Shown: positions 359-57,440, counted from the stretch's first letter. The stretch is DNA of 64,000 bases from Candidatus Saccharimonadales bacterium (GCA_036507655.1 DATCIS010000019.1:10736-74735), one strand, 5' to 3'. Program-made: numbers and translations. The notes: a model not told the origin generated them from the letters alone.

Positions 359-1342
359 CTAATTTGCAGACTGCGGTGAAAGACTGGTATCAAGAGACTC
401 GTATAAACTACTTAATTCGGCGGCTAATTCGTTATGGAGCGCAACCAATCTGTTATATTCGGCAATATCGCTTTTTAGTTGGATAATACCGGCATTATAG
501 TCGTTTACTGCCGCGTTAAAAGCCGTCACGGCAGCATTATATTCATTGACTCGCCCAGACACCCGCAGGCTATTCAGATGCCTTCTATCGGCTTCAAGCT
601 GGTCGAGTTGGCTGCTCAAGGCCTGCTCTTGGTTGTCTATCTTGTCCTTCAGAGTAGCCAGTTGCTGCTCGTAATCCTTGATCTTAGCTATGCGACTGGA
701 GAATTCGTCAGCATATTTACTGGCAAAAGCTACAACCGCCGAGCGGTTAGTGAAATAGCGCTGGTAATATGTCTCAAGCTCGGTATTTAGCACGCCTATC
801 TCAGTTGCAAAGATTGAATGCATCTCATTTAGTAGTTCGTCTGGTTCGGTCTGTTTATAGGTATCGATGGTCTCGAGAACTCTTTTATCATTAAGGTTGT
901 TGGTATAAAAATCATTCAAGAGCCCGTTAATACGTTGCTTCTCGCTCTGATTAAGGCGATCGTAAGCAGCGTGCAGCATTTCATGTGCCGCGGTGACCTC
1001 GACCACGCCGCTGAGCCTCGTGTCCTGAACGTTATAGATATAAATCACGCTGCTAAAGCTTGAGTGGTAACAACCAAGCACAATCGTTCGCTCAAAGCTC
1101 GGACAGGCTTGACGGAAAGCGGCGGCTTCTTCGATTAAATCAGGATGAGTGACATAAAATATGTGCTCGGCATCATCTGTCATAGTATCAGCTTTGGCAA
1201 TAGCCGTTATTTCTGGTGGCGGGGTGTAATTTCTGAGCCTCAGCCAATCCTCTATGGCCTGCAGATTAAACAGGCCAAATATCAGAAGCGCTAAGACTAC
1301 CAGGCTTGTTAACCCTACAAATACCCGCCTGAATCCGCTCAT
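359..1342 (-). CDS. membrane-anchored hypothetical protein with HExxH motif (HEMLH) and C-terminal coiled coil; possible zinc metallopeptidase
   Basis: N-terminal hydrophobic helix VFVGLTSLVVLALLIFGLF; TAAHEMLHAAYDRL HExxH motif; heptad-like Q/L/E-rich C-terminal third. Confidence 0.5.
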   Translation of the reverse strand: MSGFRRVFVGLTSLVVLALLIFGLFNLQAIEDWLRLRNYTPPPEITAIAKADTMTDDAEHIFYVTHPDLIEEAAAFRQACPSFERTIVLGCYHSSFSSVIYIYNVQDTRLSGVVEVTAAHEMLHAAYDRLNQSEKQRINGLLNDFYTNNLNDKRVLETIDTYKQTEPDELLNEMHSIFATEIGVLNTELETYYQRYFTNRSAVVAFASKYADEFSSRIAKIKDYEQQLATLKDKIDNQEQALSSQLDQLEADRRHLNSLRVSGRVNEYNAAVTAFNAAVNDYNAGIIQLKSDIAEYNRLVALHNELAAELSSLYESLDTSLSPQSAN

Positions 1343-1421: not shown

Positions 1422-3917
1422 CTATTCATTCTTGGATGAATAAGCCAGCTCAGGTTCTTTTCGCTTCTGTGATTTCTTAACCGCTACAGATACAACGTCA
1501 CCCTTGTGGAAAGTATCCTCCAACAGGCCGGCAGCAATCGCGTCTTCCAGAGTTTCCTGTAGCAAACGGCGCATCGGCCGGGCACCGTTATGCGCGTCGT
1601 AGCCTTTCTCAAGCAGATAGTCTTTGGCTGTTTTATTCACCTGCAGGCCGATGCCTTTTTTGACAAGACGGCTGCGTAGATCGTCAAGCTGTAAGTCTAA
1701 AATCCTCAAAGCGTCTTTCTTGGTTAGGGCGCGGAAGACGATTATCTTATCGATACGGTTCAGTAGTTCAGGCCTCATCATTCTTTTAATCTCGTCCAGG
1801 ACTTTTGTCTTGTTAGCGTCGTGCAGCTCATCAAGATTGTCCAGATCAGCAGCGCTAATAGCCGAGAAGCCAAAACTGGCCTCTTTTTGCAGTTTTTCGG
1901 CGCCGAGGTTACTGGTCATGATAATGATTGTATTCGTAAAGTCGATCTTACGGCCTTTGGCATCACTTAAAACACCGTCTTCAAGGATTTGCAGTAGAAT
2001 ATTGAAGACTTCCGGGTGGGCCTTCTCGATTTCGTCGAACAGCACTACGCTGTATGGCTGATGACGGATTTTATCCGTCAGCCGGCCGCCGTCGTCATAA
2101 CCTACGTACCCGGCCGGTGCGCCGACTAACCTGGCAACCGTGTGATGCTCACTAAATTCACTCATGTCGATTTTGACCAGCGTTTCTTCCGAACCGAAGA
2201 ACTCGCGGGCCAGCACACGGGCTAATTCTGTCTTGCCAACACCCGTCGGGCCAAGAAAAATAAATGAACCAATCGGCCTTTTTTCAGACGAGATACCGCT
2301 GCGTGAGCGGCGGACGGCCCGGGCTACGGTAGACACCGCTTCATCTTGGCCGATGATGTGCTTGCTCAAATTCTTCTCTAAACTAACAAGATACTTCGCC
2401 TCGGCGCGAATCACCTTGGTTACCGGAACACCTGTCATCCGTGATACGGTTTCAGCCACATCATCTGCGGACAAAGTTATCGGTTTACCAGCTTTGTGTG
2501 TCTTCTCAAGCTCTTTCATCTTTTCGTTAAGTTGGCTGGCAATCTGCTTTTCGCGCGCCGCTTTTTCATAATCTTCGGCATCAACCGCGTCTTCAATTCG
2601 TCCATTGACCAGTTTAAGTTCTTTTTGCAGCTGCCGCAGCTCGGGCGGAGTCTTACCCTTGTTTACTCGCAGGTAGGCGGCTGTTTCATCCAGCAAATCG
2701 ATAGCCTTATCCGGCATATAGCGGTCATTAATGTAACGGCGAGCGAATTGGACGGTGTCATCCAGCACTTCGTCATCAACCTTGACGCCGTGGAATTCCT
2801 CGTAGTATTTGCGCAAGCCCTTCAGAATAGCCAAAGTCTCAGACGGAGTGGCTTCAGGCACTTGGACCGGCTGGAAACGGCGTTCCAAGGCCGCATCTTT
2901 TTCGACGTGGCGGGTATATTCATCGGTAGTTGTTGCACCAACTAAGCGGATTTTGCCACGAGCCAGGCTCGGTTTGAGTATGTTGCCGGCATCCATTGAG
3001 CCTTCGGCAGCGCCGGCACCGACGATTAGGTGTAGCTCGTCAACGAAAACGATGGTTTCTTTGTCATTCTCGAGCTCGGCGATGACTTTCTTGAGACGGT
3101 CTTCGAACTCTCCGCGGTACTTAGTACCGGCAATCATACCGGCCAAGTCCAATGTAATAATTCGCTTGTTTAACAGGCTATCGGGCACTTCTTCATTGAT
3201 GATGCGTTGGGCAATACCCTCAACGATGGCTGTCTTTCCAACGCCAGGTTCGCCGATGAGCACCGGATTATTCTTGGTGCGGCGGTTCAGAATGGTAATT
3301 ACACGGCGGATTTGGGCTTCACGGCCGACTACTGGGTCTAGTTTGTTTTTACGCGCCAAATCGGTCATATCAGTGCCAAAGAATTCGAGTGTAGTTCTTC
3401 GCCCGCTTTTGCCCCGCCGGCGACCGGTGGCTCCGGATCTGTCATCTTCGTATTGCTGACGGTTAAGAAACTGTTCGACTTCGCCGCTCAGACGGTCGAT
3501 ATCCACCCCCATATCGCGCAGTAGAGTGGTAGCCCGGGCGTTCTTCTGGCTCAAAATGCTGTACAAGATGTGTTCTGTACCGCAGTAATCCTGATTAAAT
3601 TCCTGGGCGATTTCCCAAGCCATCTTCAAAGTTAACTTGGCGGTTTCGGATAGACCTTTACCGCCCATGTTAATAACTAGAGTCTTTGGTGTCAGATTAA
3701 GAGCCAAGCGCGCTCTGTCTAAATTAACGCCAACTCCTTCTAAAATTTTCGAACCCATTGAGCCCTCCTGGGCTAATACTCCTAGCAGCAGATGCTCGGT
3801 GCCAATGTAAGCGCTGCCCGATGCCCGGGCAATGGCGTCAGCGTGTTTTAATGAATGCAACGCGTTATTAGTCAAATGGCTTAAAAATTCTTGAAAATCC
3901 GGTGAATTTGGAATCAT
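1422..3917 (-). CDS. clpC: ATP-dependent Clp protease ATP-binding subunit ClpC (two AAA+ modules, Clp_N repeats, UVR-like linker)
   Basis: 831 aa; Walker A GEPGVGKTAI and GPTGVGKTEL, Walker B FVDELH and LFDEIEKA, sensor GARPMRR, N-terminal Clp_N repeat pair; TAG stop. Confidence 0.92.
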   Translation of the reverse strand: MIPNSPDFQEFLSHLTNNALHSLKHADAIARASGSAYIGTEHLLLGVLAQEGSMGSKILEGVGVNLDRARLALNLTPKTLVINMGGKGLSETAKLTLKMAWEIAQEFNQDYCGTEHILYSILSQKNARATTLLRDMGVDIDRLSGEVEQFLNRQQYEDDRSGATGRRRGKSGRRTTLEFFGTDMTDLARKNKLDPVVGREAQIRRVITILNRRTKNNPVLIGEPGVGKTAIVEGIAQRIINEEVPDSLLNKRIITLDLAGMIAGTKYRGEFEDRLKKVIAELENDKETIVFVDELHLIVGAGAAEGSMDAGNILKPSLARGKIRLVGATTTDEYTRHVEKDAALERRFQPVQVPEATPSETLAILKGLRKYYEEFHGVKVDDEVLDDTVQFARRYINDRYMPDKAIDLLDETAAYLRVNKGKTPPELRQLQKELKLVNGRIEDAVDAEDYEKAAREKQIASQLNEKMKELEKTHKAGKPITLSADDVAETVSRMTGVPVTKVIRAEAKYLVSLEKNLSKHIIGQDEAVSTVARAVRRSRSGISSEKRPIGSFIFLGPTGVGKTELARVLAREFFGSEETLVKIDMSEFSEHHTVARLVGAPAGYVGYDDGGRLTDKIRHQPYSVVLFDEIEKAHPEVFNILLQILEDGVLSDAKGRKIDFTNTIIIMTSNLGAEKLQKEASFGFSAISAADLDNLDELHDANKTKVLDEIKRMMRPELLNRIDKIIVFRALTKKDALRILDLQLDDLRSRLVKKGIGLQVNKTAKDYLLEKGYDAHNGARPMRRLLQETLEDAIAAGLLEDTFHKGDVVSVAVKKSQKRKEPELAYSSKNE

Positions 3918-47941: not shown

Positions 47942-49483
47942 ATGGACGCCAAAAAACTGATTTTTAAAGGACAACGGGCACTCGATTTAGTTGATGGACG
48001 GCTGGATCGACTAACGTCATATCGGCTGGTGCTGTACTCGCTGCTGGCTTTTGTGGCCTGGGGAATACTGGGTGGTTTGATGGGCGAGATCGCCTTTGAA
48101 TGGCACCAGGTTTTAGCTTCAACCGCCTTTTTGGCGGTCGTTTGCGTCACCGTCAACTACATAGCTTCTGAGCTACTCAATATCCCGCGCAACAAAGAAT
48201 CCGACTATATAACCGCTTTGATACTGGCTCTGATTTTAATGCCAGCCCAAGAACCTAATGATTACCTGATTTTGGCTGCAGCCGGTTCAGCCGCGATGCT
48301 GTCAAAGTACGTTCTGGTTTACGGCCAGCGGCATATTTTTAACCCGGCGGCAGCCGGCGCGTTCACGGTAGCTCTGCTATTTGATTATTTCCCGGCCTGG
48401 TGGATTGGGACGGCTTTTCTGGTACCGCTGGTCTTTATTGCCGGACAGCTGATTTTGCGCAAGATGAAGCGTTATTTAATGGTCAGCGTTTTTATGAGCA
48501 TCTATTTAGGTTACCTGGTTATTAATTTCTTTCTTAAAGACCAGGCCGGCGATCTGCTAAATATTGTCTGGGTCGGGCTGACTGCTACGCCAGTACTCTT
48601 CTTTGCCTACATTATGCTGACCGAGCCATCTTCTTCTCCGCATAAGCCGAAGCAAATGCTGGCCTACGCCACTCTCGTGGGAGTACTTTACTCGGTCAGC
48701 GATTGGCACTTCGCACCCGAAGAAGCCCTGCTTCTTGGCAATCTGTTCGCTTTTATCATGGCGCCCAATCGCCGTTTTGAGCTAGCGCTCAAACAAAAGA
48801 AAAAAGAGGCTAAAGATATCTACAGCTACATATTTAGTGGTAAAAAGAATTTACGGTTTGCTGCCGGCCAATATATGGAGTGGACACTACCGATGGTTAA
48901 GGCCGATACCCGCGGCAACCGGCGTTATTTTACTGTTTCTTCAGCGCCAACCGAAGATTATCTGATGTTTACCACCAAAGAACCAGAGAAGCGCAGCAGT
49001 TTTAAAGCCGGGCTGGAGAAACTGCAAGAGGGCGATAAGATGCTGGCCTACCAGCTCGAAGGCTCGTTTGTATTACCAAAGCACACTAGCCAAAAGTTGG
49101 CTTTTTTGGCCGGCGGCATCGGTGTTACGCCATTTCGCAGTATCATTAAATACCTCCTCGACAGCCGGCAAAAGCGCGACATCACACTGCTATATTCAGC
49201 CAACAGCGCCGATGAGTTCGCTTTTACCGACTTATTTCAACAATCACTACAAGCTGGCATCACAACGCATTACGCGCTCAGCGGTGAGGCACCCGATAAT
49301 TGGCTTGGTTTCAAAGGCCCGGTAGATGCCGCAATGATAAAGACCGCAGTTCCCGATTACAAAGAGCGTGTTTTCTACATATCCGGACCGTACGGTTTCG
49401 TTACCGGGTTACGGCAAACCCTGCTTAAAATGGGTTTGCCTCGCCAAAAAATCATTTCTGACTACTTCCCGGGTTACGGCTAG
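47942..49483 (+). CDS. fusion protein: N-terminal RnfD/NqrB-like membrane domain (with TATP flavinylation-type motif) + C-terminal FNR-like FAD/NAD(P)H-binding reductase domain
   Basis: [28 protein letters not shown] aligns with RnfD [33 protein letters not shown] matches the RnfD/NqrB S-x-A-T-P-L FMN-attachment motif. C-terminal RYFTVSS (RxYS), [20 protein letters not shown] are FNR-family motifs. Confidence 0.6.
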   Translation: [513 protein letters not shown]

Positions 49484-50149
49484 AGCTTCGTAGTCTTTTT
49501 GTTTTTTGACAAAATCGATGCCTTTTTTGCCCATGGCGAAGGCGGCCGTGGCTAGAACATCGGCTGAGATGATATCCGGACCGACCACAGTAATGCTTAG
49601 TATTTCGTCGGCCGGTTTTTTAGTTTTGGGGTTGATGATGTGCCCTCCGCGCTCGTAATTCCCCGATGTAGCCACCGCTCCGTTAGAAATACTTAACTTG
49701 TTAAGTATTCTCTGCTTATCAGTTGGATCTTGGATACCGATTTTCCAAATTTTATCGCTGCTCGAACGGCATAAAATATCACCACCAGCATAGATGGAGT
49801 AGGTTTTTTGGCCTTTGGATTCTAAAACCCTTCCAGCCTCGGCTATCGCCCAGCCTTTTACATACCCACTCGGGTCACAACTATCGCCGTACCATGCCGA
49901 GAAATAGCCATCTGTTTTTTCTTCAGCCCTTCGGCAGGCATGAAGTATGAATTTCATCTCGGGGCTCAAAGTCAGCTCATTTAGCTCACCGCGGTTATAT
50001 TTGGAAAGCTCGCTGTTCTTCTTATAGGGGCTGAACTGCCTATCAATCGCCCGCAATCTGTCAAAAGCGGCTTTTACAACAGACTCATTTTTAAGCTGTG
50101 GGACCTCGATAGTCACGGCCATGCCCATAACTCGGGCGGTTTTTCTCAT
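49409..50149 (-). CDS. apbE: ApbE-family FAD:protein FMN transferase (short form)
   Basis: 246 aa; N-terminal VMGMAVTIEV (MGT-type start), GGD, SISNGAVATSG, ADVLATAAFAMG motifs; 3' end overlaps the convergent fusion gene by 75 bp. Confidence 0.75.
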   Translation of the reverse strand: MRKTARVMGMAVTIEVPQLKNESVVKAAFDRLRAIDRQFSPYKKNSELSKYNRGELNELTLSPEMKFILHACRRAEEKTDGYFSAWYGDSCDPSGYVKGWAIAEAGRVLESKGQKTYSIYAGGDILCRSSSDKIWKIGIQDPTDKQRILNKLSISNGAVATSGNYERGGHIINPKTKKPADEILSITVVGPDIISADVLATAAFAMGKKGIDFVKKQKDYEALAVTREVVRNDFLARQTHFKQGLP

Positions 50150-50152
50150 GAC

Positions 50153-50593
50153 CTATGATTTAGAAGCATCGTATGCTTTATCAAGCGCCGACTGCAGCGA
50201 TTCCTGATAGCCGTAACTGGTACTGGTGGCCCCTGTTACAAAATCGATTTGATCACTTTGCTTTTCGAGGGTAGTGGCTTTAAGTAGGGGCTTGGACATT
50301 TCGGTTAGTTGTTGAGTACGACCGTCGTCTTTATCAGGCATCTGCCTAAACTGCACATCGCTAATTTTGCCGCTGGTTATTACAATTGTAATCTGAACAT
50401 TGCCATACAGCGTCTCAGCCACATCACTAGTGTACGTACCGTTCGGGTAATTATTCGCCTGAGTAGACCTATCCCCAATCCGGTTCTGGCTGGCCTGGAC
50501 GGCCGGTTCGTTAGATTCATTCTGTATCAACATATAACCACCCAGCCCACCTAAAATCGCCACCACCAAAACAATAACTAAACCTTTTTTCAC
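50153..50593 (-). CDS. FMN_bind-domain protein (NqrC/RnfG-like), membrane-anchored, with flavinylation motif
   Basis: 146 aa; N-terminal TM LVIVLVVAILGGLGGYML; C-terminal DFVTGATSTS (S/T-G-A-T-S/T flavin-attachment consensus); 3-bp gap to apbE. Confidence 0.75.
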   Translation of the reverse strand: MKKGLVIVLVVAILGGLGGYMLIQNESNEPAVQASQNRIGDRSTQANNYPNGTYTSDVAETLYGNVQITIVITSGKISDVQFRQMPDKDDGRTQQLTEMSKPLLKATTLEKQSDQIDFVTGATSTSYGYQESLQSALDKAYDASKS

Positions 50594-53647: not shown

Positions 53648-53695
53648 ACCAGCAGTATAGAGGTTATTGCTTGAAAAATTAATTTTCGGCAGGGA

Positions 53696-56077
53696 TTAAG
53701 CCTGGCGCTGGTTATCAATCGGATCCAAATCGCCGACATCCAGTTTTACCACGCTTCCGGGTTGAGCCTCACCGCGCAGAATTTTGGTTGCCACAACGTC
53801 CTCCACTGCATCGGCAATTACCCGCCGCATTGGACGGGCGCCAAATTCCGGATCATATCCGGCCTGGATTAATTTAGCCAAGGCCGCATCGCTCAACTGG
53901 ACCGAGACATTTTGCTTGGCCAAAGTTTGGTTGACATTATTAATCATCAGCTTGGCGACTTGGGTTAGCTCTGGCTGGTTCAGCGACCTGAACAACACGA
54001 TTCCATCGAAACGGTTTATCAGCTCAGCTCGAAAAACATTGCTAGCTATGAGCTTGTCGATCAGCGGCCTCTCAAATGATTCCAACGTATCACCGGCCGC
54101 CACCCTTTGAGTAATCTCGGCTGAACCAGCATTTGATGTAGTGATGATTATAGCATTGCGGAATGACGCTGGGTGGCCGGCTTTATCAGTCAGGCGACCT
54201 TCATCCAGAACCTGCAGTAGCAGGTTAAGCACGGCCTGGCTAGCTTTTTCGACTTCATCTAGCAGTACAACTGAAAACGGTTGCTGCCGGATTTGTAAAA
54301 TCAGGCTTTTGTTGGCCGGGCCGCCGGCCTCCACTAACCGCTCGGCAGCCTCTGACTGGTGATACTCGGTCATGTCTAAGCGAATCATTCGCCGTTCGTC
54401 GCCGAAATAAACCGCTGCCAATGAGCGCCCTAGTTCAGTCTTGCCAACACCGGTTGGACCCAAGAACAAAAAGCTGCCAACCGGGCGCTTGGGGTCGGCC
54501 ACGCCGGCCCGGCCACGTCGCAGCGCTGCCGACACTACTTGAACTGCCCTTTCCTGATTAATCATACGGCTGTGGATACGTTCTTCCAGATTGAGCAAAA
54601 CATCGGCTTCCGGAGCTTCGGCTTTTGCGACTTTTACGCCGCGAGTGATTTCAACAGCCGCTTGCACTGATTCAGCGGTCATAATCTTATCTTGGGTGTA
54701 AGGGATGGACTGCTCAAGCAGGCTGATAGCCTTGCCTGGATAAGCCTGATCCTGCATGTATTGGTCGCTTAGGCGATAGGCCTCACGCACTGCCTGATAC
54801 GTGACATTGATGTGATTTTGGGCCTCCAGCGTTAATGCACTGTCCTCTAAAATCTGCATCGTAATAGTTTGGTCAGGTTCGTTAATGATAATCGGCGCCA
54901 TATGCGCCGCCAGCGACTCACGGTTCGATTTTAATTGCTGCCAGAACTCCGGTGTGAAGGCTGCAACGACTTTTACCGTGTGGTTTTGTAACAGCGGCAG
55001 CAGTATCTGGCTGACGTCAAAAGCGCCTGTGCCTTTTCCAAAAAATAGCTCGGCCTCGTCTAGAAAAATAATGATGTTGCGGGCATGCACGGCTTCATTG
55101 AACAGACGAAGCATAATTTTTTCGAGCTTATCGCCAGCCGCCGACAAAATAGCTGAGGCATTAAGGCTGACAATCTGGTAGTACTGGAGGCTTTGGTCTT
55201 GGCCCCTCAGTAATCTTTCGGCTAGCGCGTACACTAGTGACGTCTTGCCAGTGCCAGCTGGGCCAACAAGCGCAGCGTTCCCCTGGGGCTGGCTCAAAGA
55301 ATGGACTACGCTGTCCAAAACTTCGCCGTGTGCCAGGGTGTGAAAATGGCCATGCCCGGCTTCGACAGCCGAACTGATATTCTGGCCGAACTGGTCGAGG
55401 GTCGGCGTGAAGCCCGATGCCCAGTCGCGGCCAATACCACCAAAATACGGCTTGGGTTGGTTTAAAGACCGGCTTAGACGCCCCAGCCAGTCCGAAGTTT
55501 CCAGTAAATCTTCGCTTGTCAAGTTAAGTTTAGCTAAATAATCTTTTGCCGGTTGAGAGCTAGTAAGCAGAGATGCGGCTAATATCCCGGCGTGTAACTC
55601 GGGGCTGTTTTGCCGCTTCATCAATTCTTGAGCGTTGTGCCAGACAGCTGCCATTTCGTCCGGTACCTCGCTTAATGAGCGTGAAACCTGCTCAGTTGAA
55701 AGCAATAAGTGATTAATGATGAACCTGCCCTGCCACTCCAACGTGACGGCTTGCCAAGTACTGCGCGGAGTAACCGGTGTCGGCTTACTGAAACGAGCTA
55801 GCAGTTTAGGTTCGAGAATATCGTCGAGCGTACGCGGCGCTAAGTTAGGCGGAAGTTTTGCTAAATCACGGCGATACCATAGGCCGATAACGGCGGTGAA
55901 TGATGACAGGCACAGGCCAGCAAAGCCGAGATTTTTTGAGTCAGCGGCAATCAGAAAGGCAATTCCTAGAACTACCGAGACGACCGAGCTGGATAACAGC
56001 ACAAGGCCTCCTCTGTTGCCTATCAAAGCTGCCAGCCTGGCTTGGCGCGCCCGCAGACTGTTGAGTTCTAGCTCCAT
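53696..56077 (-). CDS. membrane-anchored Hsp100/Clp-family AAA+ ATPase (two TM helices, Clp_N-like repeats, two AAA+ modules, no ClpP-docking IGF/LGF loop)
   Basis: 793 aa; TM LVLLSSSVVSVVLGIAFLIAA and FAGLCLSSFTAVIGLWY; NBD1 GPAGTGKTS/IIIFLDEAE; NBD2 GPTGVGKTE/VVLLDEVEKA, sensor GARPMRR. Confidence 0.8.
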   Translation of the reverse strand: MELELNSLRARQARLAALIGNRGGLVLLSSSVVSVVLGIAFLIAADSKNLGFAGLCLSSFTAVIGLWYRRDLAKLPPNLAPRTLDDILEPKLLARFSKPTPVTPRSTWQAVTLEWQGRFIINHLLLSTEQVSRSLSEVPDEMAAVWHNAQELMKRQNSPELHAGILAASLLTSSQPAKDYLAKLNLTSEDLLETSDWLGRLSRSLNQPKPYFGGIGRDWASGFTPTLDQFGQNISSAVEAGHGHFHTLAHGEVLDSVVHSLSQPQGNAALVGPAGTGKTSLVYALAERLLRGQDQSLQYYQIVSLNASAILSAAGDKLEKIMLRLFNEAVHARNIIIFLDEAELFFGKGTGAFDVSQILLPLLQNHTVKVVAAFTPEFWQQLKSNRESLAAHMAPIIINEPDQTITMQILEDSALTLEAQNHINVTYQAVREAYRLSDQYMQDQAYPGKAISLLEQSIPYTQDKIMTAESVQAAVEITRGVKVAKAEAPEADVLLNLEERIHSRMINQERAVQVVSAALRRGRAGVADPKRPVGSFLFLGPTGVGKTELGRSLAAVYFGDERRMIRLDMTEYHQSEAAERLVEAGGPANKSLILQIRQQPFSVVLLDEVEKASQAVLNLLLQVLDEGRLTDKAGHPASFRNAIIITTSNAGSAEITQRVAAGDTLESFERPLIDKLIASNVFRAELINRFDGIVLFRSLNQPELTQVAKLMINNVNQTLAKQNVSVQLSDAALAKLIQAGYDPEFGARPMRRVIADAVEDVVATKILRGEAQPGSVVKLDVGDLDPIDNQRQA

Positions 56078-56079
56078 AA

Positions 56080-56439
56080 TCAGCCCGTGAATGCCCTGAT
56101 TAAGAAGTAAATTGCCGCCAATGGCAGAAGCGGCCAGATCACGGCCACTACCAGGCTGAAAATTGCATTTACACTTATTACTACCGCTGCCGCAATCAAT
56201 GTCAAAAGACGCACAAAGAAGCCAATGGTCCTGGAAACCAGATTATCGATGGTCGCTCTGAATTTTTCATCTATAGACCTGCCGGGTGCTGATATAAGCT
56301 GTTTCCAAGGCGCAAATAAATTCTCGAGTAATGGGGGGATGGAAAATTCCAGACCAGCTCTTTTGATGGACCTGGGAACGTCGCGCCAGGCTTCAAGCCA
56401 ACCTAAGCCATACCACCACTTGAAGAGCTCAAAAAACAT
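56080..56439 (-). CDS. small membrane protein (2 TM) in an operon with the membrane Clp-like ATPase
   Basis: 119 aa; C-terminal hydrophobic segments IGFFVRLLTLIAAAVVISVNAIFSLVVAVIWPLLPLAAIYFLI; stop 2 nt before the ATPase start. Confidence 0.5.
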   Translation of the reverse strand: MFFELFKWWYGLGWLEAWRDVPRSIKRAGLEFSIPPLLENLFAPWKQLISAPGRSIDEKFRATIDNLVSRTIGFFVRLLTLIAAAVVISVNAIFSLVVAVIWPLLPLAAIYFLIRAFTG

Positions 56440-56517
56440 AAGCCCATTTTATCAGGAATTAGGATATAAGAAGAAATGACAAGCAGACGTTAAATTATTT
56501 TGGGGCAGCCAGCGTGT

Positions 56518-57096
56518 TTAACCCGCCGGCCGCCCCTTTATCCAGTACCCTCTGGCTGCATTACCTCTCGGTGCAGGCGGTAAGCCAGATTGACGAATCA
56601 TCTCAGACCACGATCCGAAGACCTTCTGAACGCAGCGTAGTGGTGGAGCTTCGAACTCGTAGTAGCGATTGACCCGTTCCAGGTGGCCCTGCCTTACTGC
56701 TTGGGCTGGATGCCAATCTGCAACCGCGGGCGTGTAACCAAAATGCTTATGCCACTCACGGGCTTTTTGTAGAATTGACTCGCTAGTCCATTTCTTGCCG
56801 CCCGCAGGACGGTAGATTCCTGACATCACTCGCAAATCGGCTACTCTTCTCACCCCGAGACCCAATTTTGCGGCGATTTCCTCATCGCTCTTACCGGCTT
56901 CGGCAAGTACTCGAACTTGCTCTTGCCTAACCTTAGTCCGACTGTTTTCTCGATTGAGGTTTCCGACCACCTGTCGAATTCGCTCAGCAGTTACACCTTC
57001 GCGAGCTCCGATTTCCTTTAGGGTCTTACCTTCCTCAAGAAGTTCTTTGCGCATGGTCTCGATTTTCTCGGGAGACCATCGCCGGTTCGGTGGCAT
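56518..57096 (-). CDS. DNA-binding protein with two sigma-70 region-4-like HTH motifs and a C-terminal HEARO-like (homing-endonuclease-associated repeat) domain
   Basis: LKEIGAREGVTAERIRQV and EEIAAKLGLGVRRVADLRV HTH; C-terminal WTSESILQKAREWHKHFGYTP...FGSWSEMIRQSGL resembles the HEARO consensus FGSW..A...AGL; AAAGGAGG SD. Confidence 0.45.
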   Translation of the reverse strand: MPPNRRWSPEKIETMRKELLEEGKTLKEIGAREGVTAERIRQVVGNLNRENSRTKVRQEQVRVLAEAGKSDEEIAAKLGLGVRRVADLRVMSGIYRPAGGKKWTSESILQKAREWHKHFGYTPAVADWHPAQAVRQGHLERVNRYYEFEAPPLRCVQKVFGSWSEMIRQSGLPPAPRGNAARGYWIKGRPAG

Positions 57097-57440
57097 TTTA
57101 GCCTCCTTTAGTCTAGAAGTCTGCTTGTCAAGAGTTCGTCTTGGAGTCCGTACCAGGCGGACTCAATAAAGACTACCATACTATAAAATATCCACACCTT
57201 TATTACAATTCGCCTAAGTGAGGGTATTAAATTGGTTGGCATCGCGATGCTCACCTGAGCAGACACGTCAAAAGTATCAACATCTAAGCCGAGGACTTGC
57301 CGAGCGAATTTTTTGAGGGAAACTCATGAGCGAGACCGACCGTTAGGGAGTTCCGCAGGTTGTTGTGTGCTTTGACAGGTGGCTGCATCAAGCGAGAAGA
57401 ACGTTAGCGAATTTGATACCCGAACGCCTGAGCTGCTACA

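Follow-up and report, generated by a model that had tools for sequence, protein, structure and literature searches.

What can a bacterial Hsp100 ATPase do once it is tied to the membrane and has lost its aromatic pore loops? This question is raised by a locus in a stretch of 64,000 nucleotides (nt), hereafter the window, from a metagenome-assembled genome of a Candidatus Saccharimonadales bacterium (DATCIS010000019.1:10736-74735). Three open reading frames (ORFs) lie there on the minus strand, encoding an ATPase of 793 amino acids (aa) (53696-56077; HEY5549965.1 at NCBI, “AAA family ATPase”), a small membrane protein of 119 aa (56080-56439; HEY5549966.1, “hypothetical protein”) and a helix-turn-helix (HTH) protein of 192 aa (56518-57096). 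The exact sequences of all three were found in public data. The original prediction for this locus, made from the DNA alone, placed the ORFs correctly and read them as a three-gene operon for an HTH/HEARO regulator, a protein with two transmembrane (TM) helices, and a canonical, membrane-tethered unfoldase or disaggregase working independently of ClpP. The analysis reported here leads to a conserved unit of two genes rather than three. It further suggests, with a probability of roughly 0.45, that the ATPase and its small partner form a non-threading, ATP-driven remodeller or switch.

The conserved unit consists of the genes for the small membrane protein and the ATPase. Eight loci around diverse ATPase homologues were fetched and scanned for the gene directly upstream, and a 119-127-aa homologue of the small protein was found at that position, on the same strand, in all eight. 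The search was also run in reverse, using a profile of the small protein. It retrieved 80 metagenome loci, 66 of them extending 400 nt or more downstream, and in 65 of these 66 an ATPase homologue begins, at about its residue 1, a few bases past the stop codon of the small gene. The small protein is an obligate genomic partner of the ATPase, and the suspected co-conservation of such a protein with TM-anchored Hsp100s holds up in both directions. Translational coupling is also indicated, as 27 of 42 full-length pairs share a 4-nt overlap (ATGA); in the window, 2 nt lie between the TGA of the small gene and the ATG of the ATPase gene, as originally described.

Full-length homologues of the ATPase are abundant (785-816 aa, 55-81% identity, 99% coverage) and are publicly annotated as “ClpC,” “ClpA” or “AAA family ATPase,” the Clp names being misleading. 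Every match to the ATPase family that bears an organism name comes from Candidatus Saccharibacteria/Saccharimonadales. Distant cluster members gave no organism names, and our statements on conservation cover the Saccharibacteria relatives sampled. The family of the small protein is large, with 1273 representative clusters at E ≤ 1e-3 and still 593 at the stricter E ≤ 1e-10. Only one subgroup shows partial synteny, in which the pair lies with the atp operon, zwf and an ABC-2 transporter; neighbors otherwise vary, the partner excepted. The interval between the ATPase gene and zwf also differs between relatives, and thus the small gene is the sole fixed neighbor. In the window (53648-53695) and in L001, the locus of the closest relative, zwf comes directly after the ATPase gene. 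In L004 (10366-11585) and L007 (10356-11736), these genes are separated by two additional minus-strand genes, one for a Pro_CA_2 protein of about 130 aa and one for a protein of 263-325 aa.

A conserved sequence element was found immediately before the small gene. The promoter-like extended -10 box TGATAAAAT (56446-56454, minus strand) ends 6 nt 5′ of the ATG; in the window its hexamer is TAAAAT, preceded by a TG, and the consensus hexamer is TACAAT. A TAnnnT box at -12 to -7, likewise ending 6 nt from the ATG, is present in 72 of 74 distinct related loci, compared with 6 of 52 predicted window genes (~12%) scored at the identical position as a control. A core resembling a Shine-Dalgarno (SD) sequence precedes the small gene in only four of the 74 loci, and the small gene of the window has no SD sequence. 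A generic promoter scan did not list the box because a -35 box is lacking. The conserved -10 box at this distance, together with the rarity of SD sequences, argues for a leaderless transcript that would start at the small gene, and in the simplest reading the pair is transcribed autonomously and without a leader. As about 12% of window genes carry such a box, leaderless starts could be quite frequent in this genome.

The small protein is built from a basic N-terminal half of about 70 aa followed by an uncharged helix of about 37 residues. The 2-TM count that had been proposed for it was not confirmed. The protein contains an uncharged stretch of 37 residues, and its AlphaFold2 model, with a predicted local distance difference test score (pLDDT) of 85, shows residues 56-118 as one long helix. 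The family alignment contains four invariant motifs, WWYGxGW, (T/N)LFAPWK(R/Q)I, DNLVSRxVGFxVR and WPLLP. No match to the small protein was found in Pfam, NCBIfam, PHROGs or PADLOC, nor in the PDB by profile search, and Foldseek searches with the model returned noise only (all E > 2).

By its architecture the ATPase is a class I Clp/Hsp100 protein, having tandem AAA+ modules with Walker A and B motifs, a lid and a D2-small domain. Pfam places AAA at residues 270-371, AAA_lid_9 at 405-458, AAA_2 at 531-691 and ClpB_D2-small at 699-778, all above cut-offs. All NCBIfam equivalogs fall far below their cut-offs, with 402 vs. 1232 bits for ClpB (TIGR03346), 337 vs. 993 for ClpA (TIGR02639), 306 vs. 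1900 for ClpG and 275 vs. 885 for ClpV (TIGR03345), and no curated family model covers either the ATPase or the small protein. The window also contains a canonical clpC (1422-3917) with two Clp_N, AAA, lid, AAA_2 and D2-small domains and the motifs KYRGEFE, GYVGY and FGF in its translation. The original view of the 793-aa ATPase as a second, specialised Hsp100 paralogue beside this clpC is borne out.

The N-terminal region of the ATPase provides a predicted membrane anchor (all features of the ATPase given here and below lie on the minus strand). A basic, presumably cytoplasmic tail, S-x-R-A-R-K-A-R-L (residues 1-22, 56012-56077), in which S7, R9, A13 and R14 are conserved in at least 90% of sequences, runs into TM1. 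It is followed by a helical hairpin with a short loop (residues 23-68, 55874-56011; TM1 ~24-46, TM2 ~50-68). An AlphaFold2 model of residues 1-250, built on a 47-sequence alignment (mean pLDDT 85.6), predicts this hairpin, with helices at 8-43 and 48-72, at pLDDT above 90. Among 115 database homologues the sequence of the TM helices varies, and their hydrophobicity is retained in 96-100%. Hydropathy, the modelled hairpin and this conservation agree with the earlier call of two N-terminal TM helices and a tethered protein. The same 115 sequences carry on average 5.1 Lys plus Arg residues in the N-tail and 3.1 after TM2, against 1.0 in the loop, a distribution that fits an N-in/C-in hairpin, as needed by an N-terminal anchor of cytoplasmic AAA+ domains.

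The hairpin is followed by an all-helical domain of Clp_N-like predicted fold (residues 84-206, 55460-55828). When the AlphaFold2 model of this domain was compared with the PDB by Foldseek, the top 45 matches were all N-domains of Clp/Hsp104 proteins, including ClpC1, ClpC, ClpB, ClpA, Hsp104, ClpT and plasmodial Hsp101, at a TM-score of about 0.5 per target and E values of 0.04-0.5. Sequence methods did not detect the relationship: Pfam Clp_N gave no match in the ATPase, hhalign against the N-domain of the window ClpC gave a probability of 1.8%, and hmmsearch against the PDB was also negative. Thus, the degenerate Clp_N-like repeat pair proposed earlier survives at the level of predicted fold and not at that of sequence. 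Between this domain and the first nucleotide-binding domain (NBD1) lies the family-specific linker motif PKPYFGGIGRDWAxGFTPTLDxFG (residues 208-231, 55385-55456). It is 98-100% invariant, the strongest conservation seen apart from NBD2, and neither ClpC nor other canonical Clp ATPases have an equivalent. AlphaFold2 confidence for the linker was low in the model lacking NBD1.

We then asked which functional elements of Hsp100 proteins the ATPase retains. It was aligned to the window ClpC and to Bacillus subtilis ClpC (PDB 3j3s), and each loss was checked in the 115 database homologues and in 42 further ATPases translated from fetched loci (157 in total). In NBD1 (residues 250-465, 54683-55330), the pore-1 loop is reduced to the remnant SAAGDK (residues 312-317, 55127-55144). 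AGTKYRGEFE of ClpC aligns to SAA--GDKLE, so that the canonical G-T-K-Y-R-G-E-F-E has lost its KY and the remnant is free of aromatic residues. The pair of arginine fingers is missing as well, LERRFQP aligning to LAAHMAP without a conserved Arg. No M-domain follows the lid, residues 460-466 of the ATPase spanning the site occupied by residues 415-482 of the window ClpC, and ClpB models match the ATPase in two separate stretches. The Walker A Lys and Walker B Asp of NBD1 are each 98% conserved, and the latter is followed by Glu in 53% of sequences and by Asp in 45%.

In NBD2 with its D2-small domain (residues 490-783, 53729-54610), the pore-1 loop lacks 5 residues relative to B. subtilis ClpC. 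GSPPGYVGYDEGGQL of ClpC aligns to EA-----GGPANKSL, and the tyrosine of GYVG is gone, leaving the remnant EAGGPANK (residues 583-590, 54308-54331). The ClpP-docking loop is likewise shortened to QRVAAGDTL (residues 657-665, 54083-54109), in which VAAGD aligns to KYVGF/SFGFS of ClpC and VGF/FGF is replaced by AGD. The alignment contains no IGF-like loop, in agreement with the earlier proposal that the protein lacks a ClpP-binding tripeptide and is not a ClpP partner. All these losses, of the pore and ClpP loops, the M-domain and the NBD1 arginine fingers, hold throughout the 115 + 42 homologues, and neither pore-1 loop is aromatic in the ATPase or in any of the 157. The description of two canonical AAA+ modules is contradicted by these losses. 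With pore loops, arginine fingers and the M-domain missing, an unfoldase or disaggregase is not the best-supported activity either.

If the remnant loops still carried out their original tasks, they would be expected to be conserved, as the pore loops and the ClpP loop are among the most constrained elements of working unfoldases. The opposite was found. Of all 8-residue segments in NBD2, residues 583-590 vary most (2.29 bits vs. a mean of 0.71), and the ClpP-loop remnant overlaps the second most variable one. Variability of the NBD1 pore-loop remnant is 1.86 bits against an average of 1.23 for NBD1. Judged by these values, the pore-loop and ClpP-loop remnants of NBD2 are under relaxed constraint. 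The catalytic elements of the same domain behave differently: Walker A, Walker B, the sensor-1 TSN, the arginine finger in NRFD and the sensor-2 motif GARPMRR are 99-100% conserved, and NBD2 is, from its motifs, catalytically intact. Lost and unconstrained pore-1 loops, a missing ClpP loop and a missing M-domain leave processive threading, delivery to ClpP and DnaK-coupled disaggregation poorly supported.

Comparison with known systems places the ATPase near ClpC and ClpA in architecture and apart from them in function-bearing elements. It shares with them two AAA+ modules in the same order, AAA_lid_9 and ClpB_D2-small and, by fold, a Clp_N-like domain; its NBD2 is 38% identical to that of the window ClpC, and its best sequence matches in the PDB are ClpC proteins (E = 2.5e-106). 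Like ClpA, it has no long M-domain. It differs from both in its TM hairpin, in lacking the (I/L/V)G(F/L) ClpP loop, the KYR and GYVG tyrosines and the NBD1 arginine fingers, in a Clp_N domain undetectable by sequence and in its sub-cut-off family scores, and the short M-domain of the ClpC type is absent too. The absence of a ClpP loop is shared with ClpB/Hsp104, its NBD2 matches Thermus thermophilus ClpB at E = 9e-100, and its loop region between TSN and NRxD has a ClpB-like length. In contrast to ClpB/Hsp104, it is membrane-anchored, has neither the coiled-coil M-domain, the element of DnaK coupling, nor the pore tyrosines, and scores 402 vs. 1232 with TIGR03346.

Two further assignments do not fit. 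ClpV/TssH of type VI secretion scores only 275 vs. 885 bits, and no type VI secretion genes surround the ATPase, its neighbors being the atp operon, zwf and an ABC transporter or else housekeeping genes that vary. A defense function, suggested by PADLOC models (DolB of the Dodola anti-phage system, PDC-M37B), was rejected. These matched the generic AAA_2 core only (DolB at residues 482-654, E = 2e-27, covering the shared AAA_2-type NBD2 core), and the small protein has no PADLOC match. The locus, moreover, belongs to the syntenic chromosomal core, with the atp operon, zwf and an ABC transporter, rather than to a defense island.

Among membrane-associated AAA+ proteins, FtsH and Msp1/ATAD1 also use an N-terminal TM anchor to set the AAA+ ring under the membrane, and FtsH has two TM helices per subunit, as does the ATPase. 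They differ in that they have only one AAA+ module, its aromatic pore-1 loop intact, and belong to another AAA+ clade; FtsH in addition carries an M41 peptidase, while the two-module ATPase has no Peptidase_M41 match. Torsins are Clp/Hsp100-related, membrane-associated proteins without aromatic pore loops or arginine finger and are activated by cofactors (PMC5425593). The ATPase resembles them in its N-terminal hydrophobic segment, its lack of aromatic pore loops, its membrane-protein partner and, in NBD1, its missing arginine finger. However, Torsins, eukaryotic proteins of the endoplasmic reticulum and nuclear envelope, have a single Clp-D2-like AAA+ module and are lumenal, whereas the ATPase has two modules and is bacterial and cytoplasmic. 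Their transmembrane cofactors LAP1 and LULL1 are degenerate AAA+ folds that donate an arginine finger, whereas NBD2 of the ATPase has its own and the partner here is a helical membrane protein of about 120 aa without AAA-like fold. Torsin is the nearest functional precedent, as an analogy and not as family membership.

Functional data are available for a probable orthologous pair. In the transposon sequencing (Tn-seq) dataset of Southlakia epibionticum (PMC10633639, Tables S1/S2), SEML1_0700 is an “AAA family ATPase” with AAA, lid, AAA_2 and D2-small at family-like coordinates and no Clp_N. SEML1_0701 is a 127-aa hypothetical protein encoded directly upstream on the same strand (PMC10633639). 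Annotation, Pfam coordinates and gene order make them probable orthologues of the ATPase and the small protein. Both genes are non-essential at P0 and P1 and are scored as “growth defect” at P2, with normalised reads of 4124 at T0 and 1638 at T2 for SEML1_0700, and of 258 and 51, respectively, for SEML1_0701 (PMC10633639). The main text of that paper does not discuss the two genes. The matching phenotypes, a late and mild growth defect, fit one functional unit. Canonical ClpC (SEML1_0512) and ClpP (SEML1_0493) are non-essential throughout (PMC10633639). In a transcriptome study of TM7x, “a predicted clp protease (TM7x_03020),” which may be either paralogue, was higher in the recovery phase.

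These observations can be combined into a tentative model in which the pair acts as a non-threading remodeller or ATP-gated switch. By analogy with Hsp100s, the ATPase would assemble as a two-tier hexamer. The 12 TM helices of the hexamer, joined by those of the small protein in a stoichiometric complex, would hold the ATPase under the membrane. Given an N-in/C-in hairpin followed by a Clp_N-like domain, the N-terminal face of the ring should be turned towards the membrane from the cytoplasm, with the Clp_N-like ring and the mouth of the channel brought up against the inner membrane face by the anchor. ATP turnover would take place mainly in NBD2, and NBD1, without a trans-acting arginine, would serve as a mostly ATP-bound assembly tier. 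There would be no processive threading of polypeptides, no feeding of ClpP and no coupling to DnaK. Instead, ATP-driven movements of the ring could act on the small partner, or on a client embedded in the membrane, by way of the Clp_N-like ring, the invariant GGIGRDWAxGFTP linker and the TM helices. This way of working would be closer to that of Torsin with LAP1/LULL1 than to those of ClpB, ClpC or FtsH.

Several points weigh against this model. The hexamer, the partner complex and the ATPase activity are all predictions. Without an aromatic pore-1 loop threading is unlikely yet possible, as the pore-2 regions and the ring architecture are kept, and the membrane-facing geometry would suit an extractase equally well. 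An acidic residue, Glu or Asp, is retained after the Walker B Asp of NBD1, which may therefore hydrolyse ATP. The analogy to Torsin is functional only, and the small protein is no AAA-like cofactor. Finally, the orthology of SEML1_0700/0701 draws on annotation, Pfam coordinates and gene order only.

The retained pore-2 regions bear directly on the main rival explanation, in which the ATPase still threads. It would then be an extractase or unfoldase of membrane proteins with FtsH- or Msp1-like geometry, drawing clients in or near the membrane into its central channel by means of non-aromatic loop residues and the pore-2 loops, and the small protein would be an adaptor, gate or assembly factor. 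The regions aligned to the pore-2 loops (FGKGTGAFDVSQILLP and EGRLTDKAGHPASF) are conserved, the N-terminal anchor sets the ring entrance against the membrane, NBD2 is fully competent, and a Clp_N-like domain of the kind that receives substrates or adaptors is retained. Yet both pore-1 loops are shortened and devoid of aromatic residues in all 157 homologues, and no segment of NBD2 is less constrained than its pore-1 remnant, the opposite of what is expected for an element that grips substrate. Neither a protease domain nor a ClpP loop is present to take up a translocated chain. On balance, we consider an extractase unlikely.

The non-threading model can be carried further along the Torsin analogy, into a bacterial version of the same principle. 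A small TM cofactor would control or receive the ATP cycle, the linker and DNLVSRxVGFxVR would form the interface, and the output would be remodelling of a structure of the membrane or cell envelope needed for the epibiotic life of Saccharibacteria. This extension is speculative and unlikely.

Loss of so many functional elements could also indicate a decaying Hsp100 paralogue, an inert scaffold or pseudo-enzyme that binds nucleotide only and has a structural role in the membrane. The Tn-seq result, with non-essential genes and a late growth defect only, is compatible with such a role. Decay is difficult to reconcile with the catalytic motifs of NBD2, which are 99-100% invariant among sequences just 55-80% identical overall, or with a large family in which full length is kept. 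Invariant motifs and a large full-length family argue for selection on ATP hydrolysis, and an inert scaffold appears very improbable.

The third ORF remains to be placed. In L001, whose ATPase is 81% identical, the start of atpB and the start of the small gene are 67 nt apart, compared with about 1 kb in the window. The HTH gene thus sits on a lineage-specific insertion of about 0.95 kb (about 56465-57430) between atpB and the small gene. It is found in none of 89 related loci, has a strong SD sequence of its own and belongs to a rare family (eight matches). Two relatives (53% and 33% identity; L090 3432-4304 and L092 4001-4477) both lie between priA and def-fmt, with no link to the ATPase, and from this single conserved slot the window copy is either relocated or a paralogue. 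The predicted transcript start of the pair, with its -10 box, lies downstream of the HTH gene. Insertion, absence from the 89 loci, position of the relatives and the intervening -10 box all contradict an operon that includes the HTH gene, which by its sequence context is an unrelated insertion and not part of the conserved unit. The full three-gene model, regulator and tethered unfoldase/disaggregase included, agrees with the shared strand, the absent ClpP loop and the TM anchor but not with these findings, nor with the missing M-domain and pore tyrosines and the ClpB score of 402 vs. 1232, and is very improbable.

Concerning the HTH protein itself, two sigma-70 region-4-like HTH units had been proposed. 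The first stands, with Sigma70_r4 at residues 15-43 above the Pfam cut-off (26.8 vs. 24.1 bits), and the second, covered by HTH_23 at residues 53-87, remains below cut-off. The C-terminal segment assigned to HEARO yields only a weak match to HNH_repeat (PF18780) at residues 141-172, under the gathering cut-off (18 vs. 26 bits, E = 0.0037). PF18780 is present in precomputed annotation of five of the eight relatives and is faint or weak in the two that were fetched. “HEARO” is the name of an RNA motif, and the protein repeat is the HNH_repeat of Pfam. As an RNA, HEARO was rejected, no Rfam family reaching its gathering score anywhere in the window. No nuclease domain was found in the HTH protein or in the relatives seen, as had been noted originally. 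The ORF is flanked by a perfect 12-nt inverted repeat, TGACAAGCAGAC / GTCTGCTTGTCA (56477-56488 and 57119-57130), within the segment of about 0.95 kb that is missing from L001. By a rough estimate, about 0.04 such repeats are expected by chance in 1.1 kb. The repeats may mark the termini of a small mobile cassette or act as a pair of regulatory palindromes.

The remainder of the window is ordinary Saccharibacteria chromosome, with dnaE, pheT, uvrB, gatA/B, gap, a T2SSE-type ATPase, the atp operon, zwf and an ABC-2 transporter around the unit. Beside clpC, an ORF of 327 aa (359-1342, minus strand) has no Pfam match at E ≤ 1e-5. Three adjacent genes (47942-49483, 49409-50149 and 50153-50593) resemble a small redox or flavin-maturation cluster, unusual in a reduced genome. 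They encode a fusion-like protein of 513 aa (NQR2/RnfD-like plus NAD_binding_1), an ApbE flavin transferase and an FMN_bind protein.

No description of a membrane-anchored or pore-loop-less bacterial Hsp100 was found in the papers searched. Pore-1 tyrosines are central to current models of Clp/Hsp100 function, and this family keeps the catalytic site of NBD2 yet drops the pore loops. It would thus represent a natural experiment on a double-ring AAA+ motor without threading. Saccharibacteria such as Southlakia are genetically tractable (PMC10633639) and the probable orthologues tolerate insertions, so the system can be studied directly. The pair might serve as a simple prokaryotic model of non-threading Clp relatives such as Torsin, the mechanism of which is still unclear. 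For the Patescibacteria, whose membrane proteome is largely unannotated, it also provides one defined and conserved module.

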